Virus record (IMG/VR): IMGVR_UViG_3300022848_000777 | Coordinates: 96,001 to 160,000 of that record | Length of the DNA stretch: 64,000 nucleotides | Source: a virus | Reading direction: 5' to 3' (one strand) | Part shown: piece by piece, positions 12,217 through 38,773 of the stretch | How the letters are laid out: each line of letters opens with the position of its first letter | Numbering within the stretch: position 1 is the first letter of the stretch | Made by a program: the position numbers and the translations under genes | The notes under the pieces: generated by a model | The model's database searches: none | What the model was told of the DNA's origin: nothing | Seen by the model: only the letters and a program-made list of their open reading frames with translations

Positions 12217-12810
12217 AGAGTGCATCGGAATTAGCAGATGGGGACATAGTTGTAGCATAAATCAACGATATCTATCAGAATACATACATATACCACTCAT
12301 AAAGAGATATTACGAAAACGAGTCATATATGTGTGTTTACGTTATTCATAATTTTAGGGGATTGTTATTATCAGACTAATAATATATCAGTACATTCATT
12401 GCGGATATGACAATCTCCATTAAAAAACAACAAAGGGTATGGTAAGGGTGGGAACACTAAACCATTCAGGAATAGGGTAGCATACTACACATTCTTTTCG
12501 ATTTGGCAAAAAAAATCCAATAGAAAAACTCTATTAGCTGATAGACACCCTCTATCACGTCAATTTACATAGATATTATCTATCACATAGACAGCCTCTA
12601 TGGATATTCCCGTGCCGCAAATCCTGTATTGATAGTATGTAACTGCTGATTATCAGTGAGTTAGACTACTTTGATGGCTTATAGGGATAGAATCAAAATC
12701 GCAATTAGGGCCATCCAGTGGGGTTTCGGTGCATAATTCACTATTTTGGGGTGATTCATATAGATAAATAGTATGAGAATCTGAGCCATCAAAAGAAAAT
12801 GGCTTAATAA

Positions 12811-13610
12811 TTTGGCTATTTCAATTATTATTCGTACCTTTGTAGGGAATTTGGTGTTAATTTTCGAAAATCGGTAGGAATCCAATAATGACTAAAGATT
12901 AATTTGGCCATTTCAACTATTATTCGTATCTTTAGAGGGGGGCTTGATGCTAAATTTATTATAAAACAACCAATACAGGCGATCTATTGGGGTGGAGACT
13001 ACTTTGATGGCTTATAGAGACGAGGAAATTGTTTAGAAATCCAAAATGGCTATATATCACCCTCTGACTATGCTGCGACATCAATAAAATCTATTAGAAA
13101 TCCAATAGAGTGGTGTGATTATCAGTATATTACAGTAATCAGAATGGCATAAGAATCCAATAGTATCTCAGTGCGCCGTAGGAATCCAATAATGACTAAT
13201 TATTGATTTGGATATCTCAATTATTTTTCGTAACTTAGGATGGGATGGTCATGCGACTGAATTATTAATATGGCATGGGAATCCAATAATGACTAAAGAT
13301 TAATTTGGCCATTTCAATTATTTTTCGTAACTTAGGATGGGATGGTCATGCGACTTAATTTGTGATCTGCCGTAGGAATCCAATAATGGCTAAAGATTGA
13401 TAGGAATCCAATAGTGGTTATCTATTAATAGGAATCCAATAATGGCTAAAAATTGATTTGGCCATCTCGATTATTTTTCGTAACTTTGGATGGGACGGTC
13501 ACCTCACGTGTCCAGTTGGGAATCCAATAATGGCTAAAAATTGATTTGGTTAATTCAATTATTTTTCGTAACTTTGGATGGGACGGTCACTACCCGTATC
13601 CCGACCGATC
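12811..13610 (+). repeat. tandem array of promoter-containing repeats (GGAATCCAATAATGRCTAA...TTTGG...TTCGTAACTTWGGATGGGAYGGTCA)
   Basis: Units start at 12877, 13181, 13278, 13431 and 13519 (88-97 bp period), with 28-bp truncated units at 13375 and 13403 and a partial unit at 12811. Each full unit has -33 TTTG and -7 TAnnTTWG elements. Confidence 0.85.
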
Positions 13611-13792
13611 GATACATAACAAATTATAATATTATATAACATGAATATATCGATATCATCTATTCGCATTATAAATTAGGTAATTATTGATATTATCCGT
13701 ATATTGCAATGTAAGATTGAGAAATCGTTAAGAGAGAAAGTTAAGAGAGTGTTATTAAGTTTATAAACCACACTAACTAAATTGATTAAACT

Positions 13793-15893
13793 ATGAGAGT
13801 AACAATATCAATCGGAGATCGAATTTATGAGCAAGGAACTCATCGATCAGCACTCATATATGAAGTGATTAGTCCAACTCATAGTGTGCCAGTCTTTGAT
13901 CCTACAGTGGAGCAACGAAGATTATTAAGAATTGAAGTATTGAATTTAGAAACTAATCCAAAACGATAATGAACACTCCAAAACTTTCATTAAACCAACT
14001 CAAGTCTAATTACCTTTTGTTACGAGGTCAATACCTTTCCACTGCACCAATGAATGAAATCGAAATTGACACTCTATGGTCAACATGGGCAGAACTTCAA
14101 AAGTTAGGTTGGAATTGGGCTAAGATCGAAGATAGCCAACTAAGAGATTAATTAACAATTTGGTAACATACTAAATTAGGATATCATATCATCTATTATT
14201 ACCTTAGTGGTGTTGGGTTGAGAGAGTAATCCTTCCCAATTAAAAATCATCAGAATTATGGAAAAGCTAATGAGATCATCAAATGGAGATTACAACTATC
14301 ACTTTCGATGGTGTAACGAAGAAGGTTTCTACGTTGGATTTAATGATGTATGGGCACCTAATAAAAAAGTGGCTGTGAAATTAGCGAGGGCTATGGAAAC
14401 CAAAGCACATTGGGCAGCATGGGATGGGATGAAATACATTACAGTTCCAAATGAAATTGTGAATGGTGAGCATTGCTTCCGTATGAAAGGGATGTATGTA
14501 GTGACTAGCTCGATGAAGCGAGCAACACACAAACATTCAAAATTGATGACTCGAATAGGTAATATGTTAACTTATTAAAACAACTATGATAAGATATATA
14601 GTAAAGGACGTTGAAAAAAACAAGTATTACGCTGGGGATAGTTACGGCTGTGGTTGGTGTGATAGGCAGAGAATGGCTGACACATTTGAAACTAAAGAAC
14701 TTGCAATGATTTTTTTAGATGGAGAGCCTTACTCATGGTATGCAATTGAAGAAATTTACATAGTATGTCGTTAGTATTAAACTTAACAATTTGGTAACAT
14801 ACTAAATTAGGATATGATAACAGCTACCCGTACCTTAGTGGTGTTGGGTTGGGGAAGTAACCCCCTCATTTAAAAACTATCAGATATGAATTTTAAACCA
14901 CTATATCAATTTTGCGACAAGTACGATATTCCACTATCCGAAGCGACTTCTATTACCAACTTGACACTTATCGTAAATAACCGAGTGATGTCAAATCTAA
15001 GTGATATGCACGGTCTTATACCAACACACAGTAAGCTAAATGCAATGAAGGATTTTATTTCAGCATTTAACACAGCAATCAAAGTAGCAACGTGTACCAA
15101 CATATACCAACGTTCACATAATTAAAAATTCAAAAATATGACATTTAAAGACTTTTTAAAAAAGCATGATTTTACTCCAATGGATTTAGTAAATCCTGAG
15201 TTGATGGATATCATAGTAAACAGTTACGGTGCTGAGTGTAAAAATGAAGGCATGGTGGCGATATTAGATATTGTAGAGGAAAAGCAAACAGAAGTAGAGG
15301 CGGTATTAGATATTGTAGAGGGAAAGCAAAACGACCTAAAGGAAATCGAGGATACTGAGATATTCGATGATGATGCGGATTCAGCAATGTATAATCACTA
15401 CGTCAGTTAACAATTTGGTAACATACTAAATTAGGATATATCGAATATATTCATTATCTTTATTTTGTTGGGTTGAGAGAGTAATCCTTCCCATTTAAAA
15501 ACCCCCATTATGAAAGAAGTTATCAATAACATTGAAGTTGAGTTAAGTGGTTCGATAGTTTACATCAACAATCTCAATGGTGATTTGCTCAGAGCAATCG
15601 ATGTTAATCCCAATTCAGCGGTCACTGATTATAAGAACTTGGTAATTCGATTAAAGAAAGCTAACAAGCATTACATTTAACAATCTATTAACATTGGAAA
15701 TTAGGATATGATAGTAATTATGCGTATCTTAGTGGTGTTGAGTGAGTGACTAACCCTTTAAAGATATTAATTATGATAGACTATAATTTACTAAATGATG
15801 AAGATGATGATTTAACAATCAGTAAGTTTGAAGCGGCCACCGCAATTGGATTGGTGGTATTTTTTGTAGTAACGACAATATTAAATAACATAA
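13793..15893 (+). CDS. small early genes, most behind their own promoter (13969-14151, 14258-14578, 14586-14774, 14886-15125, 15138-15410 and shorter ORFs)
   Basis: Short ORFs interleaved with repeated promoter modules. Confidence 0.55.
14152..14245 (+). promoter_or_regulatory. promoter module: TTAACA box, TTAGG, TACCTTAG and a conserved 5' leader hairpin
   Basis: Near-identical modules at 14152, 14783, 15407, 28950 and 33343 with leader TGTTGGGTTG(G/A)G(G/A)...CC(T/C)..CCA. Confidence 0.75.
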
Positions 15894-17320: not shown

Positions 17321-17519
17321 TTAACGTGTAACCAAAGAAAAAAAGACGCGAACCAAATCGGGCATTATCGACCCCCGTTGTGAGGCTACTTTTTCTCCCT
17401 AGGTAAAACCCTTCTGTAAAGCTTGTGTATCACACAAGCAGTATTTAATTAACAAGCAGAAGCCTTAAAAATAGCCTAAACTAGCTTTTGTTTTTATATT
17501 TTGTTAGGCACAGTTTATT

Positions 17520-17663: not shown

Positions 17664-18799
17664 TAATTTTTATTGTGCCTAACATAAAATAACAGATATG
17701 AAAAATAGTAATTTAGCATTATACGGAATACAGTCAAATATGGTAGGAGCAGAAACCTACGCACAAGCTGGCGACTTTGAGTTGTCTACGAAAATACATA
17801 TCGTTGATGTCTTATTAGCCAACGGAAGTCATTTACATATAGAATGTAATACTGAGGCACAAGCTAGAAGTATCTTGTCGACTTTATACTACTACTCTGT
17901 TAACGGTAATGATAACAACGTTGTAGAATTTGACTTTGACTTTACATTAAACTACTTGCCGATTGAACTTGCACTCAAATAAACAAATAAACACAATAAA
18001 TTTTTAAGATATGGAAGAATTGCTATTAAAGAATCAATTAGTTATAATGGAAGCTATGGTTAAGAATAGATTCAATCAAGACAAAGATGGATTGATAAAA
18101 CAGATTAAAATAATAAAAGAATTCTTAATTAATATTGAACAAATTTGAATTATGGGTAAAATGACAAAAATGACAAAAATTGATGCGGCAATAAGAGATA
18201 CCACATTATATTTTAGGAGAGCAGAAGAGAGTATAATGTTGCTAATGAGAGAGAAGAAAGTTTTACAAGAAAGGCTTAGTGCTCTTGAAGAGATAAAAGA
18301 TAGCGACCAATATGAATAATTTTTTTGTAACTTTAACGGATTGAATAATAACAAAACTTAATTATGAAATTACACGAAATTATTGAAGTACACGACAAAC
18401 CTTATTTTAGAAAAATGAGAGTAGAGAGTGGATTTATGTACAATTTTTGGGATGTAGAAAAGGATGACTACCAACAAGAATGGACTTTTGTGCCATACTC
18501 AAGCGAACTGGTTAAAAATTTCGAACACCGCATAGATACAACGGTAGGACTTTGGGCAACCGATGGGCCTGATTTAATCACAACTAAAAATACGAGAGAA
18601 GAATCAATAAAATGGTGGGATAGTTTAGGTTCAAACCCATTACTAGGGTTAATTGAAAAAGGTGAATTAACTACTAAGTATTTTGGCCCTGATAGAATCC
18701 CTGAATTATTAACTGGAAGAGAAATTGAAAAAATGTACGTATCTGAAAATGAAGATGACGTATATGTGTAGTTTTTACCCGACTAAATAAAACCGAATT

Positions 18800-19108
18800 A
18801 TGGAAGAATTATTAAAAAAAATAGGGCAGTTGCAGTATGAAATCAGTATATTAGATATTGATGAAGAGACATTAACAGGTGTTGATATTAGAACAGAAGA
18901 ATTAAAAGAGATGATAATCCAAGGGCAAGCATTACCTATAGATAGTGTTAACGTTTCGTTTGAATACGAAATGTTTATAAATGATAAAGGAACACCATTT
19001 GAAATGAACACTTGGATACCAATATCCAACGATAGAATTAAGGATGTTAGCAGGATAGATGAATACATTGAAAACGGTTTATTAAGAAAAATAGTTAATA
19101 AACGCTAA
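18800..19108 (+). CDS. chimeric protein: N-terminal module fused in frame to a cassette
   Basis: GTT at 18947 is Val50 in frame, and the stop codon is the TAA of the closing TAAC. Confidence 0.65.
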   Translation: MEELLKKIGQLQYEISILDIDEETLTGVDIRTEELKEMIIQGQALPIDSVNVSFEYEMFINDKGTPFEMNTWIPISNDRIKDVSRIDEYIENGLLRKIVNKR

Positions 19109-19644
19109 CGATTGGGCTATGAATTTTAAAAAATACGGTTATGGAAACTAAATATTATATAGCGATTGGACTTTTATTAATATCGATGGTGCTAACTTTT
19201 TTTGTACCGCTTTGGTTTGAATTAAGAGAGCACAAAAAGTGGATGAAAAGGAACGATTTTTAATTTTTACCCGACTAAATAAATAACTAAACAAATGGTA
19301 GCAATAGAGTATTTTGATAGATATAGTAGCACAGCAAATGAGCCCGATATAATGGGTAGATGGGCAAGAACGGCCATCTATAAAAACATCAGAATAGCTT
19401 GGATAAGTAGAATAGAAAATAAAGATGAAATTATTTTTAGTGTTTCTTGCCATTTCCCAACAATGCAGAACGATACAGCAAACGAACATAAACTATGTTT
19501 TAGTTTGGATGAAGCAAAAGAGTTTGTACAAGATCGCTGGGAATGGTTCTTAAATGAGGTTTCTTAAACGTTAAGGCTATGTGTAGTGCCAAAATTTTAA
19601 AATAAAATTAGGTAGTTCAACATATTATTCGTATATTTACAAGA

Positions 19645-19985
19645 TGTATAGAAGTCGGCAGCGAATCGACTAATACATTACAGACATTCTTGTACGTCCA
19701 ATAGCCTTTGTGCTGTATCGCTCGGAATGTTTAATTGAAAGCCGCTAGAGAGGGTTCTTAGAAAGCGGCACGGGTTTGCGAAAGGAACGCCCACTAAGAA
19801 GGTTTATTACACAACCTATAGAGTTCTGAGCATCGGATTGTAATTAAACGAAGCACCTAATAACGAAGGCTCAATGAAGGTTAAGCATATCGTTTAAAGG
19901 TATCGCCCTACGTAGTTTCGCAACGAACTTCTTAGGGATTGCTATACCTTTAACTCAGGTCTAAATCAGGTATAGCATAGTATTT
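19645..19985 (+). ncRNA. unidentified structured RNA (about 340 nt) inside the cassette array
   Basis: Promoter TTAGG(19608)...TATATTTA(19632). ORF-free and GC-enriched. Hairpins gccgct/agcggc and gggtttgc-gaaa, long-range gctcggaa/ttctgagc, and a long 3' hairpin aaaggtat...ataccttt. Confidence 0.55.
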
Positions 19986-20125
19986 AAAGTGTACACTAAC
20001 TAGTTTTTCTTTAGATTGGGTGGTAATTGTAAAAAATTACAACAATAAACTTGTGTAGTATAATTTAATTGATTACATTGGTCAAAGATAAGGGGGAAAC
20101 TTAACCCAATAGTGAATTAAATTAA

Positions 20126-20193
20126 ATAAAACGGTTTGGCTATGATGTCGGTTTTTATTTTTCTTAAAAACTGCATTATAGGTGGTGTTATAC
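20126..20193 (+). other. attC-like site
   Basis: AAC-GGTTTGG-CTATGATG(T)CGGTTTTTA/TAAAAACTGCATTATAG-GTGGT-GTT, with one extrahelical T. Confidence 0.75.
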
Positions 20194-20302
20194 CCTGTTT
20201 TTGAGCGTTGGATAAAATAATTTACAGAAAAGTGTATTTTTATTTGGTGGTTAATACAGAATGCTGTATATTTGTAGTATAATAATTAAAACAAAAGAAA
20301 TT

Positions 20303-20658
20303 ATGACAACCCAAGAAATGAACAACAAGGTAATAGTAAGAGCAAAAGAACTTTTAACAATACCACAAGTGCAAAAAGAATACCAATCAAAAGAAAATGA
20401 AGCAGAAGCAAAAGATTGGATTTTACACCAAGCACTAATAACTCTTATGTATTCTCACGAAGAAAGAATGGAGATGCTAAAGAAAAAACAAGCAGCATAA
20501 TGAGCAAAGACCTAATAAAATGGAGTGAACTGAGCCGCAAATTAAGCGGTTCAGACAACTCTATACGACATAATAAAATACCTAAAAAGTATGAACGCAA
20601 AGTAAATCGTTTACTGTGGATTCTCGATTTGTGGGAGCGTTGGGCAAATAGGGTATAA
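20303..20658 (+). CDS. two-gene cassette with its own promoter (20303-20500, 20500-20658)
   Basis: Canonical TTTG(20243)-TATATTTG(20267) promoter inside the cassette; TAATG-coupled ORFs; the second ORF is basic and HTH-like. Confidence 0.6.
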
Positions 20659-20747
20659 CGTTTAGTATATGGTTTTGTAAGCCATAGCAGAAATTTACAA
20701 TTGAAAAAGAATATTAATTGGCTTATAAACTATATACAGTGTTATAG
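20653..20747 (+). other. attC-like site
   Basis: AAC-GTTTA-GTATATGGTTT(T)GTAAGCCA...TGGCTTATAAACTATATAC-AGT-GTT. Confidence 0.78.
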
Positions 20748-20777
20748 TGAGTTTTTAAGTCATAAAATAACACAATA

Positions 20778-20936
20778 ATGAAAACACATAAAGTAATTGA
20801 CGTAACAACAATAAATGAAAACTCCTTATTTTACGGAACGATAGGGGAGTGTTATGAATGGAAAGTTGAGCAAGGATTTGGGTACAAAGTATTGCCATTA
20901 TCAAAAGAGGAGAAATCTTTAGCTAATTCACTATAA
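20778..20936 (+). CDS. 52-aa cassette protein (not in ORF track)
   Basis: MKTHKVIDVTT...ANSL*, with the stop overlapping TAAC. Confidence 0.6.
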   Translation: MKTHKVIDVTTINENSLFYGTIGECYEWKVEQGFGYKVLPLSKEEKSLANSL

Positions 20937-21002
20937 CGTTTGGCTATGTGTGGAAACTATATCTTAATTATTGCTAATGCTAAGTATAAAACCAGTAACG
21001 AC

Positions 21003-21278
21003 ATGAAGGAAAAAATTGATGAATTAATGGATAGGTTTGATGAAGGGAATATGTGTATAGATGACTTACACGGTGAGTTATTGGATTTATACAATGTTAC
21101 CCCTCGTTTTTTTGTGGCTTTGGTGTACCAAAATGTAGGGGCTACAATGTTAAGAACCTTAGTTACAAAATGTGACAACAAAGATGAGGCGTTAGGCAAA
21201 GCCATAAAATACTTTGCAGAAGAAACAAAAGGTTATGGCTTAGTAATGAAAACAGTTACTTCTCCAAATGGGGGGTAA
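21003..21278 (+). CDS. chimeric protein (N-module plus cassette)
   Basis: GTT 21096 is in frame (LLDLYN-V-TPRF); the stop is the TAA of the closing TAAT. Confidence 0.65.
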   Translation: MKEKIDELMDRFDEGNMCIDDLHGELLDLYNVTPRFFVALVYQNVGATMLRTLVTKCDNKDEALGKAIKYFAEETKGYGLVMKTVTSPNGG

Positions 21279-21364
21279 TGGTTTGGCTATGAATTGAAGC
21301 CAAGTAAAAATGTTCAATTCAATTACAAATCTTCATAGGCTTTTATTTATAGTCTGTGTTATAA
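21273..21364 (+). other. attC-like site
   Basis: AAT-GGTTT-GGCTATGAATTGAAGCC...GGCTTTTATTTATAGTC-TGT-GTT. Confidence 0.75.
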
Positions 21365-21375
21365 AACGTTTTATT

Positions 21376-21597
21376 ATGATTGCAAAAATTAAAAAGGACT
21401 TAAAAAATAAAGGGTACAAGACACCTAAAGTAAAGTACAATAGATTGAATACTCATTCAATTTCTTATGAAGTTGCACTGAATGAAGCAGACAAATCAAG
21501 TGCTTGGGACGGACATTATTTTGTAGGAGAAGAGGGAACAGGAAATTCCAAAGAAGCAATGATTGAGGATTGGAACTCTTTTGTAAATGATTTATAA
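21376..21597 (+). CDS. cassette protein
   Basis: MIAKIKKDLK...VNDL*. The reading frame stays open back through the GTT core at 21358. Confidence 0.6.
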   Translation: MIAKIKKDLKNKGYKTPKVKYNRLNTHSISYEVALNEADKSSAWDGHYFVGEEGTGNSKEAMIEDWNSFVNDL

Positions 21598-21620
21598 CGT
21601 TTAGGCTAAAAACAGTAAAG

Positions 21621-21941
21621 ATGAAGAACGAAATAAAAAACTTGATATATAAACACTTTGAACCTAAAGATGTGGGAATGGGAATTATAAATTGTATACA
21701 CGAAGATAAAGACGTTGATAAATTAGCAGAAAGCTTAGTTGATTTATTTTCTATACCCGTTGTTAGTAATTGGGTTGCGATCGAAAGTGATGAAAAACCC
21801 AAAAGATTTACAGAAGTTATGGTTAAGTACACAAACGGAATAACGGCAATTGCCGTGTTTGATGGTGATGGGCGGTTTTATATCGAAAAAGATGACAGGG
21901 ATATAACAGATATAGTTTTTGAATGGCATAATCTACCATAA
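21621..21941 (+). CDS. chimeric protein with a DUF551-like C-terminal module
   Basis: GTT 21762 is in frame (LFSIPV-V-SNW); the C-terminal part WVAIESDEKP...VMVKY...WHNLP resembles DUF551. Confidence 0.55.
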   Translation: MKNEIKNLIYKHFEPKDVGMGIINCIHEDKDVDKLAESLVDLFSIPVVSNWVAIESDEKPKRFTEVMVKYTNGITAIAVFDGDGRFYIEKDDRDITDIVFEWHNLP

Positions 21942-22351
21942 TTACGGGTAATGGTTAAACTATGTTATAGGAATAATTTTACGGATTAAAAACTAAAACA
22001 ATGGAAAGACTAATGATGATAATAGCAACACTTTGGCAGGAATTAAAAAAAGATTGGAAACGTTGGTAGCGTATGGGTTTATCCGTATATTACCTCTATA
22101 ATGATTGATAACCACCTAACAATAAAAATATATGGATTTTAGAGTAGAATATAGACATAGAGGAATACTTGAATATGTACATTTATCTAGCTGTGAAAAT
22201 ATAATGGATGCACTGCATAAATTCTATGAAGCACATGGAATAAGCACAGAGATTAATAAAATAGAACGTTGGTAAAAATTTATTAACAGTGAAGGTTGGT
22301 TTATCCAACTTTTTTTTGTATATTACAACATAGAAAAAACACAATATCGAT

Positions 22352-23752
22352 ATGAAAGCAGAAATGTACCAAATACTATTTGATGTAGAAAATAAAAACC
22401 TCACATCTGAACAAGCTCAAGTTCAGTTATGTGAGTTATTAAGTTTACTTAATACCGCCCATCTAAATTCCTATGACACTTATTCAGGCGATGCTTTACA
22501 TAAAATCCCGTTTGGACTTTATGAGATATTTTGGAAATCAGGGGGGTCATCCCTTGCAAGTGTTGGTAATATGCACGATGGTGTGAGGTGGATCGCACCT
22601 AGTAACTGGACATCAGCGACTTCACCAACGGGTAGAATGGATAAACACGCAGATTCAATCGAGCGAATGGTTCTTTTGTATGGTACGTAATGGTAATAGA
22701 TAAAAACAAAGTAATAATAACACAACCAAGAATGTTATGTACGTGTTGCTATACAGAAAACTGCAAAGGTGAGTGCTGGATAACAATTAGATTTTATAGA
22801 TGGATAATGCGGGTATTAAATTAAAATATATAAAATGGAATTAGAAGAACAACTTCAAATAGTAAAGGAATTACTTGAAGCAACACAAGAACTTCAGGGA
22901 GAGTACCAAGATGGTTGGGATAACAGTATTGAAGGGGGTGAAAGGCTTTTGGAGTACCTACAACACAAATTTGATTATGAAAACAATTGTTTAACATGAG
23001 ACACCAAATAGAATTACAAAGATTAGAAGTGTGGGCAAATAAACAAGAGATACTATATGCTTCATGTACTAAATCTAAAAAGAAACTGTACGTTTTAATG
23101 AGTAATAAATTTAAAGTGTATAGTAAAGGTAAATTAGTATATGAAACAATAATCGCATCAGCAGCAGTAGAGGCTTACAACGAACTTTAATTATACCCAA
23201 CCCCGCAAAAACCCAAACAATGATAGACATCGACTTAATATCAAACATAGTAATAGGTGGCATAGACCAAGAAGACTTTCCTGACTTCTGCGATTCCTAC
23301 ATAGAATCAGGAACCTACAAAAGCAGAGATCTAACAGATATCGAGTTAGATGAGATAAACGAAGACTCGGCTTTTGTTTACGAGAAAACTATTGAATCTA
23401 TGTATTAGCTAATGACTAAACTATGTTTTGGTTGTTTTTACAACTTAAATATAGATTTTGTTAGCATTAGTACGGATTATTAACTAAAAAAATAAATAGA
23501 ATGAAAAAATTCAACATTAATGATTATATCTATATCCAGATAACAGAATTAGGATGGAAACACTTAGAGAAAACAGTAGGTAGTGAATACATAAAACATT
23601 GTATTAACGCTGACGGGTATAAAAAAGAGATAGATAACGAAACGTGGCATAGACTACAAGCGCATGACGTGTTTAGTTTATTACCTATGGGAACAGGATT
23701 TAATTTATTATACAATCCAAACGTAATGTTTGATGGGGATGCGTTAAAGTAG
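22352..23752 (+). CDS. hypothetical proteins within the array (22352-22690, 22987-23190, 23220-23408, 23501-23752)
   Basis: From the ORF track. 23501-23752 fills a complete cassette (23460-23765). Confidence 0.6.
23407..23466 (+). other. attC-like site
   Basis: AAT-GACTAAA-CTATGTTTTGGTTGT-TTTT-ACAACTTAAATATAG-ATTTT-GTT. Confidence 0.75.
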
Positions 23753-23758
23753 TATTAA

Positions 23759-23820
23759 TGCTAACGTTAAGGGTATGGTGTCGTTTGCTTTTCGCAAATG
23801 CACTATAACCAGTGTTGTGC
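23759..23820 (+). other. attC-like site
   Basis: TGCTAAC-GTTAA-GGGTATGGTG(T)CGTTTGC-TTTTC-GCAAATGCACTATAACC-AGT-GTTGTGC. Confidence 0.8.
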
Positions 23821-23855
23821 ATAGTACGGATTATTAAAAACTAAAATTAAATAGA

Positions 23856-24599
23856 ATGGAAATAAACAAAATATATAATGAAAATTGCCTTGATACAATG
23901 GCGAAAATGGAAGATAACTTTATTGACTTAATAGTTACATCACCACCTTATTTTAATGCTAAAGAATATTCACAATATGATAGCGTTTCAGAATATATGA
24001 GACAAATGAAAGATATTTTCTTAGAAACTGAAAGGGTGATTAAAGAGGGTAGGATGTGTGTTATAAATATTAGCCCTGTACTTGTTGCTAGGGAAAAAAG
24101 AAGTAAACAAAGCTATAGAATACCATTACCTTATTATTTTGTGCCTATGATGGAGGAAATAGGCTTTGAGTTTTTAGAGGACATTATATGGGAAAAGCCA
24201 GAAGGTGCTGCTGCAAATAGAAACGGTGGTTTTTTTAGGAGTAGAAAACCATTAGCATACAAGCCTAATATAGTTACAGAATATATATTAGTATTTAAGA
24301 AAAAGTCAAATTTATTAATAGATAAGTATTTAAAAAACAATAGCCTTGTTAGTGATGGTTATGAAAGGAGTAATATTTGGAAAATACAACCACAAACGAA
24401 AAGTAAGCGCCCAGCACCTTTCCCTGATGAAATTGCTGACAAATTAATAAAATACTATTCGTATGAAAATGATTTAGTTTATGACCCGTTTATGGGAAGT
24501 GGAACAACTGCAAAGATGGCTAAACTAAATAATAGAGATTTCATAGGTAGTGAAATGGTTGAGGATTACTGTGTAATTGCAAATGAACGATTAAAATAG
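23856..24599 (+). CDS. orphan DNA methyltransferase, beta class (probably N4-cytosine)
   Basis: Motif IV TSPPY precedes motif I DPFMGSGTT; PAPFP also present. It occupies a complete cassette. Confidence 0.92.
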   Translation: MEINKIYNENCLDTMAKMEDNFIDLIVTSPPYFNAKEYSQYDSVSEYMRQMKDIFLETERVIKEGRMCVINISPVLVAREKRSKQSYRIPLPYYFVPMMEEIGFEFLEDIIWEKPEGAAANRNGGFFRSRKPLAYKPNIVTEYILVFKKKSNLLIDKYLKNNSLVSDGYERSNIWKIQPQTKSKRPAPFPDEIADKLIKYYSYENDLVYDPFMGSGTTAKMAKLNNRDFIGSEMVEDYCVIANERLK

Positions 24600-24605
24600 T
24601 ATTAT

Positions 24606-24658
24606 GCACAACACAAGGCTAAACTGTCGTTTTCAATACAGTTTAGTTAATGTTATCT
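24606..24658 (+). other. attC-like site
   Basis: GCACAAC-ACAA-GGCTAAACTGT...ACAGTTTAGTT-AAT-GTT. Confidence 0.75.
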
Positions 24659-24683
24659 TTTGTTAATAAGTAAACTAAAAATT

Positions 24684-25252
24684 ATGAAAACAATTAATTT
24701 ATTTGGCAAAGAAATGCCAATTGAGAAAGAATACGAAGCAGCAGTTTGTGTATGGGAAACGATTGGTTCAAGTATTGATGATTATGAAGATGTTAAAATA
24801 AAACTAGGACAGAAAATATATAATATTAAAATATTGGAAACTGGTAGTATTATTTTTACAACATCACCAGATAGTAAAATTAATATGGTGACAATGTTTC
24901 CTCAAATGTTTGGATTTCCAAGCGATGAGCAACTAATTGAAGTTAAAAATTTAGAAGATATTATAAGCAAATCACATGATAAAATAAATGATATTTATAA
25001 TAGTATTGAACGAACTGGTTATACTGATATACCGTTTTAAAACTAAATATTATGAATGAAGATATTATAAAATTAAAAAACTTGATTGAAGAGTATGAAG
25101 AACTTTGTGAAGAATCTGAACAAATGAGCAAAGATTGGGAAAGTGGTTCTGAATGTGAATCGGCAATGGCAGACCCTAGCGACAAATATATGAAGGGTAT
25201 GCAGATTGAAGAAAAGCGCAATGAAATTAAGAGTGTCTTAAATACACTCTAA
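24684..25252 (+). CDS. two hypothetical proteins (24684-25040, 25052-25252)
   Basis: Lie between GTT 24652 and TAAC 25250-25253. These two ends do not pair, suggesting a deletion-fused pair of cassettes. Confidence 0.55.
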
Positions 25253-25284
25253 CGTTGAGTATAACAATTAAAAATAGATAAATT

Positions 25285-26226
25285 ATGAGTGTAAATTTTT
25301 TAAGTAAGGCTAACAGACAATTAATAATCGACCAATACTCAAGTAATAAACCACGTAAACAAGTTCAAGATGAACTAAGTGTATTTCTTAAAGTAACTCG
25401 TAGAACTATTAGGAGATACGCTAAAGAATTAAACTTAGGAATTAAAGCATCTCAATTAGTAGATGATAAAATTATGGTTTACGATATTGAGACAAGTCGA
25501 ACAGAGGCAACCGTTTGGTGGACTGGTAAACAGTACATAAACCATAAGCAATTAAGAACAGAACCTAAAATGATTAGTGTTGCTTGGAAGTGGCTAGGTC
25601 AAGACGAAGTGCATTATCTAACTTGGGATAAAAACCATTGCGACAAGAAAATGTTAGAATCGTTTTTAAAGCATTATAATAAGGCATCTATGGTAATAGG
25701 TCAGAACAATAATTCATTTGATAATAAGTGGGTTAATACACGTGCAGCAAAGCATAAGTTACGAGTTGATAGATATGTAAAGTCCTTTGATATTTACAGA
25801 ATGGCAAAACGATATTTTAGATTACCAAGTTTCTCAATGGCTTATATGGCTAAGTACTTTGGATTAACATTAAAGCAATCTCACGAAGGTACACATATGT
25901 GGGATATGATTGAGTACGGTAGTAAAGCCGAACAAGCTGAGTACTTAGGTAAAATGGTGGATTATAACAAAGGGGATATTGTAACTACTGAGGAATTGTA
26001 TATGACTTTAAAACCTTATTTTGGTAGTGTAACTAATAATGCAGTTAAGCGAGGTTTACCTAAATGGGCGTGTCCTGTGAGTGGTTGTGTAGAAGTTAGG
26101 TTATTAAAAACTATTTTTACAGAGCAAGGAACAGTACAAAGGATTTTGTTTTGTGATGAGAGCCAACACCAATATAAGGTAAGTAATAAGTCTTATATGG
26201 ATTTCTTACAACGTAAAATGATATAA
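25285..26226 (+). CDS. RNase H-like (DEDD/PolB-type 3'-5') exonuclease with N-terminal HTH
   Basis: VYDIET, GQNNNSFDNKW, YNKGDIVTTEELY. Confidence 0.8.
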   Translation: MSVNFLSKANRQLIIDQYSSNKPRKQVQDELSVFLKVTRRTIRRYAKELNLGIKASQLVDDKIMVYDIETSRTEATVWWTGKQYINHKQLRTEPKMISVAWKWLGQDEVHYLTWDKNHCDKKMLESFLKHYNKASMVIGQNNNSFDNKWVNTRAAKHKLRVDRYVKSFDIYRMAKRYFRLPSFSMAYMAKYFGLTLKQSHEGTHMWDMIEYGSKAEQAEYLGKMVDYNKGDIVTTEELYMTLKPYFGSVTNNAVKRGLPKWACPVSGCVEVRLLKTIFTEQGTVQRILFCDESQHQYKVSNKSYMDFLQRKMI

Positions 26227-34936: not shown

Positions 34937-35023
34937 GGAAGGTTGACAGAATGGTATTGTAGCGGATTGCTAATCCGTGGTCGTTAGTTCGGCTTGTGAG
35001 TTCGAATCTCACATCTTCCACCA
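34937..35023 (+). tRNA. tRNA-Ser(GCT)
   Basis: Cloverleaf with long variable arm and encoded CCA. Confidence 0.92.
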
Positions 35024-35184
35024 AAAATTAATTAACAATTTCTTAACATATGAAATTAGGTTTAACCAAACTAAATTCGTATCTTTGTTTTGTTGGGTTA
35101 GGGAAGAAACGTTTTCTTTAATCATTAGAGTTTGAAATATTAATATCGTTACTGTGGATCGATAGTAACGATTATAAAATAAAT

Positions 35185-35258
35185 GGTACTGCATCATATC
35201 GGTGTATGCTGCTTCCCTGTCACGGAAGAGATTGTGGGTTCGAATCCCATCAGTACCG
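35185..35258 (+). tRNA. tRNA-Asp(GTC)
   Basis: Acceptor GGTACTG/CAGTACC; loop CT-GTC-AC. Confidence 0.9.
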
Positions 35259-35303
35259 CTTTAGAGTTTTTATAAGTTTCTCTTTTAAAGAACTTTGTTT
35301 TTC

Positions 35304-35375
35304 CGCCCATTCGTCTAACGGCTAGGACTTTAGGTTTTCGACCTGAGAATGAGAGTTCGATTCTCTCATGGGTGA
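35304..35375 (+). tRNA. tRNA-Glu(TTC)
   Basis: Acceptor CGCCCAT/ATGGGTG; loop TT-TTC-GA. Confidence 0.85.
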
Positions 35376-35529
35376 CAAATTGGTATAGTTTAGCACATCC
35401 CCATAAGGATGTTAAAACGACTTTCAAGGATAAGGTAAGAAAGATGAATTAACATCTACCGTGCATATTAATAGTTTAGTTCATTGACGTATTGGGAATT
35501 ATGAAGTGGTTTAAATTCCACTTCAATTT

Positions 35530-35618
35530 GGAAGGGCGTATGGCTGGCGTACTTATCAGTCTTGAAAACTGTGATGTCGGGTAAAACTGGCGTGTGGGTT
35601 CGATCCCCACTCTTTCCA
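35530..35618 (+). tRNA. tRNA-Ser(TGA)
   Basis: Loop CT-TGA-AA; long variable arm. Confidence 0.88.
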
Positions 35619-35807
35619 CAACAGCATAGGAACGTGAATACTCATCATTGAAACAAGTACTATACTCTAAGTGAAATTAATATTTAGTAAGTGTTGGTGA
35701 TGCTTCAACGAACGATTGATAAAGTAACTTAAAAAATTATCATTTATGGTAGTGATTGGGAATAGCCAATTAATGCATGAAAACAGCTACCATAAATGAT
35801 TTTACAA

Positions 35808-35881
35808 TGGCTCGTAACTCAGCTGGTTAGAGTACTCGACTTTTAATCGAGGTGTCGTGAGTTCGATCCTCACCGGGCCAA
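35808..35881 (+). tRNA. tRNA-Lys(TTT)
   Basis: Canonical cloverleaf. Confidence 0.93.
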
Positions 35882-36075
35882 CAAATTTCGTTAGTTTAAT
35901 CTTCGTGTTTAACAACACTGAAAAACGCCCTACGTGTGGGTACTGATAGTATGAAATCTATCACGAGATTACTTTATTAAAAAATAACCCAAATGATGTA
36001 TTAGTTCCCATGCACAATGGATCTGATGTGATCATAACGGTATCATATTTCTAGAGTGTGGTATTTAGGGTTTAT

Positions 36076-36160
36076 ACCTTTGTGGCGAAATGGTTAATAC
36101 GCGCTAGCCTTAGAAGCTAGTATCAGAAATGGTGTATGGGTTCGACTCCCATCAGGGGTA
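36076..36160 (+). tRNA. tRNA-Leu(TAG)
   Basis: Cloverleaf with long variable arm. Confidence 0.92.
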
Positions 36161-36165
36161 CACAT

Positions 36166-36248
36166 GCTGGAATGGCGGAATGGTAGACGCGCAGGTTTCA
36201 AAAACCTGTATCCGAAAGGGTGTGTGGGTTCAACTCCCACTTTCAGTA
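36166..36248 (+). tRNA. tRNA-Leu(CAA)
   Basis: Cloverleaf with long variable arm. Confidence 0.92.
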
Positions 36249-36273
36249 CAAACAACTTCTAACGTGGAAGTTG

Positions 36274-36425
36274 GGTAACGTGGTGAAACTGGAAAACACG
36301 CTGTTTGTCTGCATCTGCCTTTGGAATTGGCAATAGTTAAAAGAGGGAAAAGTCATAATCCCGAAACTAGAAACAACTAGGCGAGGCGGGTGACTTAAGT
36401 ATGGGTTCGAATCCCATCGTTACTA
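36274..36425 (+). ncRNA. tRNA-like RNA with a roughly 70-nt structured insert replacing the anticodon loop
   Basis: Acceptor GGTAACG/CGTTACT+A, Leu-type D arm GTG..GG..CAC, perfect T arm ATGGG-TTCGAAT-CCCAT; 152 nt in total. Confidence 0.75.
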
Positions 36426-36527
36426 CTAAGAGAGAAGGAAGCGGCGCATCACTAATCGATGAAAATACGCTGTTGAGGGGGCTGATTAGATGCCATGCGG
36501 ATGTGACGTGAAATTCTCTTTTTAAAT

Positions 36528-36613
36528 GCTCCTGTGGCGAAATGGTTATACGCGCTGGGTTTAAATTCCAGTATCTGAAACATGGTGTGTGGGTTCGAAT
36601 CTCTCTAGAGGTA
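36528..36613 (+). tRNA. tRNA-Leu(TAA), degenerate copy
   Basis: Anticodon arm intact; mismatches in the acceptor (C:A) and T stem (T:T). Confidence 0.7.
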
Positions 36614-37066
36614 CTATTAAAATATATGGGGGTGTGTAAGTAGCACTTACAGGTAGGTAGCATGAGAAGCTTGAAGAATCGGATAGAATTACGTAATATA
36701 TCTGGGAGATAGTTGATAGCTAGAATAAAACCTACTGGCCCACCCTCACCAATTAAATGTTCCTTAATTAAGGAACATTATTAAAATACGGGCCAACTAA
36801 GATTGTAAATTTAGTTAACTACTAGGCTAGTGTGTCACACATGATGAGAAATAGGGTAGTTCCTTATAGTGAAAAGTGGTTGGATGAATTGCCACCAGAT
36901 TGATCATCTGTCTAAGAATTAAGAGATAAATTATAGGCTTCTCACTGATCTATTCCTAACTTTTTACAAATAGGCTGAGTCGGCTCCTTTTTGGATAGAC
37001 ACGATAGTAATTTGTATTGAGGACAACAATGAACATCTCAGCTGGATAATACATGGTGTTCAACTT

Positions 37067-37140
37067 ACTTCTATAGCTCAGTTGGTTAGAGCAATTCTTT
37101 TACATGGAATAGGCCATTGGTTCGAATCCAGTTAGGAGTA
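37067..37140 (+). tRNA. tRNA-Val(TAC)
   Basis: Canonical cloverleaf. Confidence 0.92.
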
Positions 37141-37156
37141 CAATTATTAAAAATAT

Positions 37157-37239
37157 GGGCATCGAAAGTTGATTGGATTCAGCAGCCAGACTGTAAATCT
37201 GGTCCTTTACGGGGAGTGGTTCGAATCCACCGAGGCCCA
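37157..37239 (+). tRNA. tRNA-Tyr(GTA)
   Basis: Loop CT-GTA-AA; long variable arm. Confidence 0.88.
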
Positions 37240-37442
37240 CAATAAAACAAAATCCCACTTGAAGATAAACAACACTTACGTTTGAGACCTTAACATTAAG
37301 TTGGTAGGAGAGGGGTATAAACTGTATCAGCAGTTGTGTTTATTGTAGAGGTAGGCGTAAGATGTTTTGTGGTATAAGTACCCGCCAATCCCTTACAAGT
37401 ATTCCACTGAAATTTGGATGGGGGTTTGTTTTATTTTGATAT

Positions 37443-37513
37443 CGGGTTGACGAATGGGGTATCGGCTATGATTTGGAGTCATGGCGTAGTGAGTTCGACT
37501 CTCACCAACCCGA
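37443..37513 (+). tRNA. tRNA-Pro(TGG)
   Basis: Acceptor CGGGTTG/CAACCCG; reduced D arm. Confidence 0.82.
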
Positions 37514-37527
37514 CGATATTAGTAAAC

Positions 37528-37601
37528 GCATCTGTAACTCAATTGGATAGAGTGTCTGCCTTCGAAGCAGAGAGTTGGGAGTTCGAGTCTCTCCAGGTGT
37601 G
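37528..37601 (+). tRNA. tRNA-Arg(TCG)
   Basis: Canonical cloverleaf. Confidence 0.9.
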
Positions 37602-37815
37602 CAATTGTAATATAATATTACTTCATAAAAACTTGAAATAGATGTGGTAAAACACTACGTATCGGGTAGAATGGATAGGCAAAATAGGTTGGGGTTATAC
37701 ACAAGTCATGTAAATAGGAAGCTACCCATCACTATCCAATAAGATTGATGAAAATATTAACGATTATCCTTTAGAGTGGTGACTAACATCAATTATAATT
37801 TATCTATTTCAATAT

Positions 37816-37887
37816 TGCCCCCTCATCTAATTGGCAGGATGCCTGGTTTTGAGCCAGAGAATTGAGGTTCGAATCCTTGGGGGGCAA
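37816..37887 (+). tRNA. tRNA-Gln(TTG)
   Basis: Acceptor TGCCCCC/GGGGGCA. Confidence 0.9.
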
Positions 37888-37901
37888 CTATATTTAAAAT
37901 C

Positions 37902-37975
37902 GGTTCCATAGTTTAGAAGGCATAAAATAAATCTCTTGTAAAGATTAGAAATCAGTTCGATCCTGATTGGAACCT
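37902..37975 (+). tRNA. tRNA-Thr(TGT)
   Basis: Loop CT-TGT-AA. Confidence 0.88.
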
Positions 37976-37979
37976 CTAA

Positions 37980-38051
37980 GGTGTTGTAACTCAGCGGTAG
38001 AGTGCTAGATTGAAGATCTAGTGGTCGGTGGTTCGATCCCACCCAGCACCA
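37980..38051 (+). tRNA. tRNA-Phe(GAA)
   Basis: Canonical cloverleaf. Confidence 0.92.
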
Positions 38052-38064
38052 CAATATAAAATAC

Positions 38065-38136
38065 ACAAGTGTCGTCTAATGGCTAAGATTACGGATTCCA
38101 AACCCGTAGATGGGGGTTCGATACCTTTCACTTGTG
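38065..38136 (+). tRNA. tRNA-Trp(CCA)
   Basis: Loop TT-CCA-AA. Confidence 0.88.
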
Positions 38137-38228
38137 CAATTATTAACAATTTGGTAACATAGAAAATTAGGATATGATATCAAATAACCGTATCTTTATT
38201 TCATTCTGTTGATTCAGAACTATAACAT

Positions 38229-38302
38229 TCCCCCGTAGCTCAGTTGGTTAGAGCGGCACCCTGTTAAGGTGAGGGTCATAGGTTCGAATCCTATTGGGGG
38301 AG
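38229..38302 (+). tRNA. tRNA-Asn(GTT)
   Basis: Canonical cloverleaf. Confidence 0.92.
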
Positions 38303-38349
38303 CAACATAAATTAAATAACATATAAAATCTTAGAAGTTTGATAAGTAT

Positions 38350-38423
38350 GGGTATATAGCTCAATTGGTTAGAGCATCACCCTGATACGGTGAAGGTTAT
38401 GAGTTCGAGTCTCATTATACCCA
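38350..38423 (+). tRNA. tRNA-Ile(GAT)
   Basis: Canonical cloverleaf. Confidence 0.93.
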
Positions 38424-38622: not shown

Positions 38623-38628
38623 CAAAAT

Positions 38629-38700: not shown

Positions 38701-38773
38701 CAAATATTTAAATCAAAGCGGAAGATTGTACATTAAATTGTCCGAAGTACTTAACAGATTGATTTAAAATTAT

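Follow-up and report, generated by a model that had tools for sequence, protein, structure and literature searches.

An integron-like site family with a G·T-marked folding strand and probable reversal of the genes in a phage

Repeated hairpins separate the small ORFs in part of a viral DNA stretch of 64,000 nucleotides (the window), and their G·T mispairs lie on the strand that carries the genes. Does this polarity identify recombination sites of a distinct, top-strand class, or a structure selected in RNA, as the original prediction proposed? That prediction proved partly right. The best overall explanation, with a probability of about 0.7, is an integron-like family whose folding strand is marked by G·T mispairs and whose genes are reversed in the phage.

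Sites and cassette arms along the array

On the + strand, an R'' arm that ends in AAC is followed by about 6 nt of unpaired spacer (GTTTGG) and by L'' (CTATG…); after a variable hairpin come L' (…YATAG), a further spacer of some 5 nt, and an R' arm beginning with GTT. AAC/GTT cores, an R box, an unpaired central spacer of 5–6 nt, an L box, and a variable terminal structure are shared with integron attC sites and CALINs. Single-gene cassettes, whose start is complementary to their own R'', are likewise found in attC/CALIN arrays. Judged from its sequence, the region is probably a gene-cassette array separated by integron-type (attC-like) recombination sites. Clusters of attC sites without an integrase are known in virulent phages, N6_N4 methyltransferase cassettes included (Qi et al. 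2023, PMC9892861), and the window resembles these phage CALINs in having such a cassette in a phage without integrase. The elements along the array are the following.

17503–17514, + strand: left (R') arm of cassette 1, GTTAGGCACAGT, with the G of the G·T pair at 17513; pairs with 17672–17683
17672–17683, + strand: right (R'') arm of cassette 1, ATTGTGCCTAAC, with the T at 17673
19561–19592, + strand: half-site (R''-spacer-L''), TTAAAC-GTTAAGG-CTATGTGTAGTGCC
20126–20200, + strand: complete site with AAAC, GGTTTGG, L'' CTATGATG (20140–20147), hairpin GTTTTTA/TAAAAAC, L' CATTATAG (20174–20181), GTGGT, and R' GTTATACCCTGTTT (20187–20200)
20646–20753, + strand: complete site with R'' AAATAGGGTATAAC (20646–20659), GTTTA, L'' GTATATGGTTT, variable loop, L' AAACTATATAC, AGT, and R' GTTATAGTGAGTT (20741–20753)
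20925–20956, + strand: R'' AATTCACTATAAC (20925–20937) and half junction GTTTGG-CTATGTGTGG, extending into the next ORF
21271–21370, + strand: site whose R'' is degenerate (TAAT), with GTTTGG, L'' CTATGAA, loop, L' TTCATAG, spacer, and R' GTTATAAAAC (21358–21367)
23409–23473, + strand: site with CTAATGAC, TAAA, L'' CTATGTTT, hairpin, L' AAATATAG, ATTTT, and R' GTTAGCATTAGTAC (23460–23473)
23752–23827, + strand: complete site with R'' GTATTAATGCTAAC (23752–23765), GTTAA, L stem GGGTATGGTG…CACTATAACC enclosing the hairpin TTTGC/GCAAA, AGT, and R' GTTGTGCATAGTAC (23814–23827)
23856–24599, + strand (the G·T strand): cassette gene, N6/N4 DNA methyltransferase (Pfam PF01555, 150 bits)
24599–24664, + strand: complete site with R'' GTATTATGCACAAC (24599–24612), ACAAGG, L'' CTAAACTGT, loop, L' ACAGTTTAG, TTAAT, and R' GTTATCTTTTGTT (24652–24664)
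25244–25262, + strand: R''-like end that closes the array, ACACTCTAAC-GTTGAG, directly ahead of the exonuclease gene 25285–26226

The search for cassette arms was strand-symmetric, with G·T and A·C scored equally. Five arm pairs are present in the window (17503/17683, 20187/20659, 20741/20937, 23460/23765, and 23814/24612), each composed of GTT, seven Watson–Crick pairs, a G·T at position 11, and one to three additional Watson–Crick pairs. At 12–14 bp in total, these outer stems exceed the 7-bp R box, as had been noted; where attC has a 7-bp R stem, the stem here has 10 bp, a G·T, and another 1–4 bp. In all five pairs the G of position 11 belongs to the left arm (17513, 20197, 20751, 23470, and 23824) and the T to the right arm (17673, 20649, 20927, 23755, and 24602). 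Since the arm pattern occurs about 16 times per 3.7 Mb of unrelated DNA, ~0.04 pairs are expected in the 8.4-kb stretch that contains the five. Full arms occur at only five of ~12 cassette boundaries in the window, several junctions being half-sites.

Around cassette 1 the inverted repeat is wider than the arms (17494–17512/17674–17692), and comparison of these arms with the pair GTTAGGCGCAGTT/AATTGCGCCTAAC of the viral contig L181 reveals a compensatory change from A:T to G:C. The R' at 21358–21367 pairs with GATTTATAAC (21589–21598), with one A·A mismatch, and no paired left arm was found for the R''-like end at 25244–25262. The L'' of the half-site at 19561–19592 is identical to an L'' of the viral contig L054, and the bacterial loci L189 and L202 share the L'' form CTATGTGTAGT. 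Some cores are textbook attC-like, for example GTTAGGC/GCCTAAC.

Consistent extrahelical bases are absent from the sites, which have instead, unlike attC, fixed G·T mispairs at position 11 of the R stem and positions 5 and 10 of the L stem. Where L stems of the window are bulged (three sites), the + strand has the additional base in its AAC arm, the classical top-strand position for extrahelical bases, and the classical marks of orientation are therefore mixed.

Strand preference of folding and mismatch types

As they stand in the window, all six complete sites are more stable on the + strand with DNA parameters, and five of six with RNA parameters, which bears out the expectation that the coding strand folds best. 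The mean strand difference is −2.47 kcal/mol, compared to −0.50 ± 1.24 kcal/mol in 381 control windows from the genome (P about 1e-4, DNA parameters). The site at 20126–20200, with a G·T at 20144/20177, has a DNA fold of −10.5 kcal/mol on the + strand and −4.9 kcal/mol on the − strand; the L stem of the site at 23409–23473 also contains a G·T. Folding both strands of the reconstituted sites, the check proposed with the original prediction, favors the + strand in five of five, by 1.3–7.6 kcal/mol with DNA parameters and 3.9–14.9 kcal/mol with RNA parameters. With DNA parameters, the reconstituted site 20646–20753, a single hairpin, yields −17.0 (+) versus −14.5 (−) kcal/mol, and 23752–23827 yields −18.0 (+) versus −11.4 (−) kcal/mol.

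To type mismatches, G·T pairing was forbidden in the fold and 1 × 1 and 2 × 2 mismatches inside helices were counted in 13 sites from the window, L054, and L181. The count is 11 G·T, no A·C, and 10 transversions, and the original observation of a G:T polarity on the plus strand is confirmed. When the pairs at position 11 and the G·T that is paired in L181 are included, G·T versus A·C is ~21 to 0, a bias that base composition does not predict (G × T = 0.057, A × C = 0.051). The one A:C exception that had been named, 18947/19109, is a 10-bp match of a strength common in the background, with its left arm inside ORF 18800–19108, and at best represents a degenerate half-site (CTATAG-ATAGT-GTTAACG).

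The + strand has a strong G>C skew throughout, and the control windows themselves slightly favor it (−0.5 kcal/mol), as would suit chance or an origin from old inverted repeats through mutation that is strand-asymmetric (C to T on the non-template strand). We regard such an origin as extremely improbable, given that the G·T pairs stand at fixed positions, are kept across genomes of differing composition (L181 and the bacterial loci), and follow the site even when gene orientation flips, and that five arm pairs are observed against the ~0.04 expected.

In classical attC sites the strand bias is statistical: the bottom strand, which is the one recombined, has more G·T mispairs (1.24 versus 0.39 per site), and the stability difference is 2.1 kcal/mol (Nivina et al. 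2016, PMC5027507). As in those sites (PMC5027507), a single strand here has the G·T mispairs, the greater stability, and the AAC that is cleaved in attC. In contrast to them, the G·T bias is at fixed positions and nearly absolute, and the phage favors the other strand with respect to the cassette ORF.

Gene polarity in bacterial and viral arrays

An 18-base junction motif is found in 37 bacterial loci, nearly all from Flavobacteriales or other Bacteroidota. Twenty bacterial cassettes have arms of 10 Watson–Crick pairs and then a G·T as pair 11. In a set of 54 distinct sites, the pair at L-stem position 5 is G:T in 33, A:T in 17, G:C in 3, and A:C in 1, and that at position 10 is G:T in 32, T:A in 9, A:T in 7, T:G in 4, G:C in 1, and A:C in none. 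Beyond the window, the site signature also occurs in the unrelated viral contigs L054, L181, L056, L040, and L032/L047. L181 encodes a homologue of the window's methyltransferase (65% identical) with a like site architecture, and the arms of this cassette have different letters, are still complementary, and keep the G·T at position 11. The family is found in Flavobacteriales, other Bacteroidota, and their phages, and the source phage is a large Bacteroidota phage.

Genes of the bacterial loci mostly oppose the G·T strand (128 to 20), whereas those of the viral contigs mostly lie on it (46 to 13), with mixed orientation in 4 of 10 contigs. The phage coding strand folds best, then, because the folding strand of the family has fixed G·T pairs and phage genes face opposite to the bacterial ones. 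As the G·T strand is the recombined bottom strand in classical attC and the coding strand here, the phage cassettes are reversed in polarity: gene direction is flipped relative to the site, and a reversal of the folding logic is not supported. The idea of a distinct top-strand class thus holds for the fixed G·T pairs and the lack of consistent extrahelical bases, and lacks support as to a reversal of folding, the bacterial G·T strand corresponding to the classical bottom strand.

The retention of the G·T signature under opposite gene polarity points to a constraint on DNA, not mRNA. Selection in RNA would involve stems of a polycistronic mRNA that bracket ORFs and guide processing or stabilize the transcript, with G·U tolerated. 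The ORFs of the window are indeed flanked by stems, all its G·T pairs are on the transcribed-sense strand, and the fold advantage is larger with RNA parameters (mean difference −8.0 kcal/mol). However, in the bacterial arrays with genes on the other strand, where R 11, L 5, and L 10 are kept, the cassette mRNA would have C·A at these positions. Invariant AAC/GTT cores, and unit indels and breakpoints at AAC, have no RNA rationale, and the hairpins are not followed by terminator-like T runs. The RNA reading is accordingly very unlikely.

A Xer/IntI-like gene is located ~1.1 kb from a site in the bacterial loci L198 and L207, and homologues of the Xer-like recombinase (57–76% identity) are present in all five array-bearing genomes tested. 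In six of seven loci with a readable flank, a palindrome comes after the recombinase gene, and then an AAC core and the first gene of the cassettes; the seventh, L232, ends 14 bases beyond the recombinase gene. Unlike the integron integrases, this Xer-like recombinase has no IntI-specific insert, and the sites for their part are without consistent extrahelical bases. No recombinase gene was found in the source phage, which is 90% complete, nor in seven further viral records, of which one is 100% complete. Because the phage encodes none, a host Xer-like tyrosine recombinase may act on its sites, which are linked to the enzyme by adjacency in bacterial genomes only.

The phage array could instead be a classical attC cluster without integrase, in which a host IntI recombines the folded − strand, opposite the ORFs, and the + strand G·T pairs are incidental. 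The AAC/GTT cores (some of them textbook), the R-spacer-L-loop layout, and the site lengths fit attC, the bulged bases of three window sites are on the + strand AAC arm as in classical top strands, and phage attC sites are recombined by IntI1, the bottom strand best (PMC9892861). We nevertheless consider this unlikely. The − strand has C·A at three conserved positions and is the worse folder in six of six sites, while G·T marks the recombined strand in classical attC; consistent extrahelical bases are absent, the recombinase by the bacterial arrays lacks the IntI-specific region, and the ORFs of related contigs begin in the site loop, in an indel unit with its junction upstream of the ORF.

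Crossover point and proposed mechanism

Bottom-strand cleavage of classical attC occurs between A and C of AAC (PMC5027507). Where related contigs diverge, the breakpoint is at the AAC on the G·T strand, a mapping that rests on other contigs, the window having no polymorphism that maps the crossover. Compared to L041, L037 contains an additional unit of 478 nt, bounded AAC…AAC, and ORFs begin within the loop of the site and continue across L' and R'. From TAAC on, L056 and L057 share 99.6% identity, and their upstream sequences are unrelated.

The L056/L057 breakpoint could also come from homologous exchange within a shared 15-mer. Exchange between like repeats by homologous recombination is the rule for the PeSL (promoter/stem-loop) cassettes in hyperplastic regions of T4-type phages, and similar regulatory modules could shuffle genes here without site-specific recombination, the arm complementarity being a relic. 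The phage is T4-like, its array forms a block of small accessory ORFs that are bordered, as in PeSL regions, by repeated stem-loop modules and give evidence of modular exchange, and half-junction direct repeats GTTTGGCTATG flank ORF 20947–21278 and the RNA gene region 19567–20130. We find this account quite improbable, as it does not predict AAC/GTT cores or complementary arms unique to each cassette, and leaves unexplained the fixed position-11 G·T in ~30 phage and bacterial cassettes, the strand-specific exchanges of G·T to A:T or G:C, and the recombinase-palindrome-AAC arrangement in bacteria.

In the integron-like mechanism that we propose, the recombining form would be a folded single DNA strand, marked by the G·T mispairs at R 11, L 5, and L 10, which in the complementary strand are destabilizing C·A mismatches. 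This G·T/C·A asymmetry may take the role that extrahelical bases have in the strand choice of classical attC. Crossover at the AAC of the G·T strand would set the cassette unit as C, junction, R' arm, gene, and R'' arm…AA, so that the gene is flanked by its own R'/R'' arms, predicted to pair over 12–15 bp once circular. Genes on the other strand give the classical layout in bacteria. In the source phage and related viral contigs, genes on the G·T strand place the site upstream of its gene, unlike in attC, and make the coding strand the best folder.

A comparable case is the CTX phage, where a single-stranded attP hairpin is recombined by host XerC/XerD and the whole ssDNA genome integrates at dif. 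The folded strand of CTX attP mimics a core site with two arms and an unpaired center, and no phage integrase is needed. The present sites are similar in the folded phage single strand, the two arms with an unpaired center, and the lack of an own integrase, with the role of Xer here suggested by bacterial adjacency; they differ in having single-gene cassettes as their units and in belonging to a T4-like phage with dsDNA. As a minor observation, the stop codon TAA lies inside the TAAC of the element at 20925–20956.

Cassette array and junction layout in the phage genome

A series of small ORFs, encoded without exception on the + strand, lies at approximately 17.4–25.3 kb of the window, which covers bases 96001–160000 of the 174,750-base record of this AT-rich phage. 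Six complete sites and several half-sites, all on one strand, lie between 17.5 and 25.3 kb, and no integrase is present in the record, an arrangement that may amount to a CALIN (two or more like-oriented attC sites clustered in a few kb, intI being absent nearby). Only about 5 of the 12 boundaries in the array are intact. Among ten cassette proteins tested, the N6/N4 DNA methyltransferase encoded at 23856–24599 is the only one with a Pfam family. The junctions between ORFs are composed of the following parts, in which R and L denote the outer and inner stems:

Part 1, + strand: arm (R'') ending in ..TAAC, the TAA frequently serving as stop codon for the preceding gene
Part 2, + strand: spacer such as GTTTGG
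Part 3, + strand: 5' stem half (L'') such as CTATGATG
Part 4, + strand: variable hairpin
Part 5, + strand: 3' stem half (L') such as CATTATAG
Part 6, + strand: spacer such as GTGGT
Part 7, + strand: arm (R') beginning with GTTA..

The L stems of the window sites are 7–11 bp long, with loops of 7–50 nt and a total site length of 65–108 nt. The 14-mer AACGTTTGGCTATG (up to three mismatches) recurs within the array, and its matches elsewhere in the phage genome are scattered and chance-like. The arm that follows a gene pairs with the arm preceding the same gene; with the next arm, no pairing is observed past the core. Direct repeats of half-junctions flank the ORF at 20947–21278 and the RNA gene region at 19567–20130, and demonstrate a contribution of homologous exchange or decay to the array.

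Several non-coding elements accompany the cassettes. In the segment 17244–17502, directly before the first cassette, a hairpin rich in G/C (GTGCCACTCCCCCC…GGGGGGGGGCGGCAT) occurs together with a palindrome (AAGCTTGTGTATCACACAAGC); the segment may be an array edge or a terminator. A structured, gene-free segment with its own promoter-like box (19608–19980) is placed like a cassette between the half junctions at 19561–19592 and 20126–20147. Upstream of cassette ORFs, TTTTTACCCGACTAAATAAA is found twice (18772–18791, 19265–19283) and TACGGATTAWWAAMCTAAAA three times (21980–22003, 23471–23494, 23825–23848); both probably serve, inside the cassettes, as signals for the start of translation or transcription.

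Strand bias of the G·T mispairs

A search for paired arms in which G·T and A·C were scored equally revealed five pairs, at 17503/17683, 20187/20659, 20741/20937, 23460/23765, and 23814/24612. Each consists of GTT, seven Watson–Crick pairs, a G·T at position 11, and one to three further pairs. The orientation at position 11 is invariant in the window arms, with G in the left arm and T in the right. The chance level was estimated from 3.7 Mb of unrelated DNA, where the same arm form was counted about 16 times; the array stretch would accordingly be expected to hold about 0.04.

To favor neither strand, the helix mismatches were tallied on folds in which G·T pairing was disallowed. Small symmetric mismatches in the helices of 13 sites comprise 11 G·T, no A·C, and 10 transversions. 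Counting the pairs at position 11, and also the paired G·T in the viral contig L181, brings the ratio of G·T to A·C to approximately 21 to 0. The one A:C exception that had been quoted, at 18947/19109, proved to be a 10-bp match within an ORF, with a strength at background level.

Sites were also reconstituted from the right arm of a cassette, the junction, and its own left arm. They fold into single long hairpins, and folding of both strands gave the lower energy for the + strand in all five; the same strand is the more stable in six of six complete sites folded in place with DNA parameters. The mean difference between + and − strands is −2.47 kcal/mol (P about 1e-4 against control windows drawn from the phage genome, where it is −0.50 ± 1.24), and the bias is not predicted by base composition. 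The original prediction of a folding preference for the coding strand is thus borne out, as is that of unusually long outer stems, since the R stem measures 12–15 bp, with its fixed G·T, compared with 7 bp in classical attC sites.

The same signature is observed in other viral contigs. A homologue of the methyltransferase (65% identical) is encoded on L181, an unrelated and more GC-rich contig with the same site layout. Its arms (GTTAGCAGAAGTGGC / GCCATTTCTGCTAAC) differ in sequence from those of the window, and again show 10 pairs, a G·T at position 11, and four pairs. The arms of the adjacent L181 cassette (GTTAGGCGCAGTT / AATTGCGCCTAAC), compared with GTTAGGCACAGT / ATTGTGCCTAAC in the window, display a compensatory A:T to G:C change with the G·T retained. 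Furthermore, every inner stem of L181 contains two G·T, and A·C is absent. The G·T feature is real, conserved, and strand-specific.

The exact 15-mer TAACGTTTGGCTATG recovers further viral contigs (L054, L032/L047, L034/L060, L037/L041, L040, L056/L057, and L059), whose long inner stems carry two G·T pairs spaced by four base pairs. The arm form of 10 pairs plus G·T is present in L054, L056, and L040. Relatives found by way of the flanking exonuclease gene (L001–L030) carry no array; upstream of the gene, their DNA either shows no relation or lies on the opposite strand. Searching with TTGGCTATRN{34,64}ATAGGTG, a gapped pattern of too low specificity, gave chance matches, and a widened 20-mer pattern added only two matches in viral contigs, both attributable to chance within long ORFs. 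In the GenBank phage records, we found nothing resembling either the array or the consensus of the bacterial sites.

Breakpoints and gene polarity in related loci

Pairs of related viral contigs locate the breakpoints. L056 and L057 share 99.6% identity beginning at the T of TAAC|GTTTGGCTATG, and upstream of it they are unrelated. L037 differs from L041 by one additional unit of 478 nt, extending from AAC to AAC and composed of C, the junction, the R' arm, the ORF, and an R'' arm with AA at its end. The ORF begins within the loop of the site in both L037 and L056 and continues through L' and R', and the start codon of the L181 methyltransferase overlaps the GTT of R'. The two sets of breakpoints, together with these ORF starts within sites, indicate that the upstream junction travels with its gene and place the exchange point at the AAC of the G·T strand. 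For classical integrons, the cut is made between A and C of AAC in the folded bottom strand (PMC5027507). The junctions beside the methyltransferase cassettes of the window and L181 are too diverged to tell which of them moves with the gene.

A bacterial counterpart was obtained by searching AACGTTTGGCTATGNNTAGT in one genome per prokaryote species. The scan yielded 37 loci, nearly all from Flavobacteriales and other Bacteroidota, several of them on megabase chromosomal contigs. The bacterial sites are longer than those of the window (approximately 190 nt) and share their layout, as in …CCTAAC-GTTTGG-CTATGCGTAGTGCGGG…CCCGCATTACGTATAG-GTTTT-GTTATAT. The arms of 20 bacterial cassettes show 10 pairs followed by a G·T at position 11. 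In scripted tallies over 54 distinct sites, position 5 of the L stem is G:T in 33, A:T in 17, G:C in three, and A:C in one, while position 10 is G:T in 32, T:A in nine, A:T in seven, T:G in four, G:C in one, and A:C in none. These exchanges are the pattern expected if one strand must pair, with wobble allowed or wanted.

Of the genes near bacterial sites, 128 lie on the strand complementary to the G·T strand and 20 on the G·T strand itself, whereas in the viral contigs, including the window, the count is 46 on the G·T strand to 13 on the other. The G·T polarity is thus a property of the site, unchanged when genes face the other way. This bears on the action in RNA that was also raised in the original prediction, and on the reading of the stems as structured mRNA elements for processing or stability. 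The phage array on its own, with its genes on the G·T strand, conforms to such a scheme; pairing selected in the cassette mRNA should, however, follow the transcribed strand everywhere, and the polarity follows the site instead, which argues against it. A mutation bias linked to transcription is disfavored for the same reason, because the polarity stays with the site when the gene direction flips.

The G·T strand is therefore the equivalent of the classical bottom strand in this Bacteroidota and phage site family, and it follows that the phage does not use a different site strand; rather, its genes sit on the folding strand. Accordingly, the notion of a distinct class of top-strand sites holds insofar as the + strand is the one that folds relative to the ORFs and the sites are unusual, and fails in supposing a departure from the folding logic of attC.

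Relation to integrons and candidate recombinase

Integrons capture genes by means of folded single-stranded DNA sites. The classical AAC/GTT triplets are present in every complete site of the window, and the attC plan of R box, unpaired spacers of 5–6 nt, L box, and variable end within 57–141 bp is retained, with spacers such as GTTTGG and GTGGT. Some sites fit the attC consensus RYYYAAC / GTTRRRY (GTTAGGC/GCCTAAC) and others do not (GTTATAC, GTTGTGC). The two to three extrahelical bases found in the recombined strand of attC near L'', on the arm opposite AAC, are absent as a consistent feature. In their place, G·T mispairs fixed at position 11 of the R stem and positions 5 and 10 of the L stem are observed, and the strong sites (those of L181, L032, L040, L056, and the bacteria) have continuous L stems. 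The few bulges of the window sites are located on the + strand in the arm with AAC; as this is the classical top-strand position, the bulges give a mixed signal.

In attC, G·T mispairs and greater stability characterize the recombined bottom strand (PMC5027507). In agreement with this, the more stable G·T strand of the complete window sites also carries the AAC at which the breakpoints of the related contigs fall. In contrast to classical cassettes, with the ORF on the top strand and the site downstream, the site is upstream in the window and the viral contigs; the bacterial members keep the classical order. Virulent phages, among them a Polaribacter phage, have been described with clusters of attC that lack an integrase, and methyltransferase cassettes occur in such clusters (PMC9892861). 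For Bacteroidetes, what IntegronFinder 2.0 reported is limited to In0 elements and a single complete integron, that of Salinibacter. In the limited literature searched, we found no paper on reversed cassette polarity in phages or on the G·T signature.

Classical attC sites are recombined by IntI, which has a specific additional domain. No match to the tyrosine recombinase family PF00589 was found in the phage record (90% complete) or in seven other viral records, one of them 100% complete. Single-strand transposition of the IS200/IS605 type was rejected, as the phage genome has no Y1 transposase. In two bacterial loci, a tyrosine recombinase of 380 residues is encoded about 1.1 kb from a site. 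Its top NCBIfam match is NF040815, a XerA/integron-integrase model (about 222 bits), and the two proteins fall below the cut-off of the integron-integrase model TIGR02249 (211 and 187 against 265). Their alignment to IntI4 (PDB 2a3v) is interrupted at IntI4 residues 176–248, where about 43 residues are absent, whereas that to archaeal XerA-type proteins is uninterrupted. Homologues with 57–76% identity are present in all five array-bearing genomes tested. Since the sites have no extrahelical bases, a protein lacking the region by which these are read would suit them; its link to the sites is suggested by adjacency.

Among seven loci with a readable flank, six have a palindrome behind the recombinase gene, and then an AAC core and the first cassette gene; the seventh, L232, ends 14 bases past the recombinase gene. 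The palindrome is perfect and conserved (for example ATATAAACGTAATTACGTTTATAT), lying about 45 bases past the recombinase stop in L227, L228, and L231 and similarly in L229, L226, and L207, all from Flavobacteriales. The palindrome with the AAC core is a candidate attI-like primary site. In three bacterial loci (L197:333–1577, L205:3834–5054, L189:1–1254), an integrase of the Arm-DNA-bind_5 type is encoded within 0.1–3 kb of a single site of the family. Such integrases are typical of Bacteroidota mobile elements. They look like unrelated mobile-element integrases; the elements may use or disrupt such sites.

The G·T bias is best explained as the mark of the folding strand in a non-classical, integron-like site family in which the phage cassettes have reversed polarity. 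We tentatively propose, with a probability of about 0.4, that the three fixed G·T pairs act as the strand selector of a bulge-less Bacteroidota system driven by the Xer-like recombinase. Phages would keep their own pool of reverse-polarity cassettes, with the site upstream of the gene, able to supply a start codon, and folding from the non-template strand, perhaps at times when it is exposed by transcription or by phage replication.

Integrons are almost absent from Bacteroidota in the literature searched, and the window joins a site family spread in Flavobacteriales and their phages that keeps the attC layout, marks its folding strand by fixed G·T, and adjoins a Xer-like recombinase without the integron-specific domain. 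If the mechanism holds, single-strand recombination would have a simple and mutable rule of strand choice. Anti-restriction methyltransferases and other accessory genes would be swapped by phages in the form of cassettes opposite in direction to the bacterial ones, with a bearing on gene trade between phage and host. Software that finds attC by assuming classical polarity and bulges would then miss such arrays.

Outside the array, the window contains a gene-free region of about 1.4 kb (12230–13620) with at least six copies of a unit of about 90 nt (GGAATCCAATAATGRCTAAAGATTRATTTGGCCATTTCAATTATTTTTCGTAACTTWGGATGGGAYGGTCA), each ending in a Bacteroidota-type −7 box (TAnnTTTG). This region could be an origin or a promoter bank. 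A leader of about 95 nt (TAACAATTTGGTAACATACTAAATTAGGATAT…TTAGTGGTGTTGGGTTGAGAGAGTAATCCTTCCC) precedes consecutive small ORFs in four copies (14150–14250, 14780–14880, 15405–15500, and 15675–15760) and could combine a repeated promoter with a structured 5' leader. Further downstream lie a block of 27 tRNA genes (34937–43810) that includes a tmRNA (41241–41638) and a GOLLD RNA (43663–44146) with a tRNA-Leu(CAG) inside.
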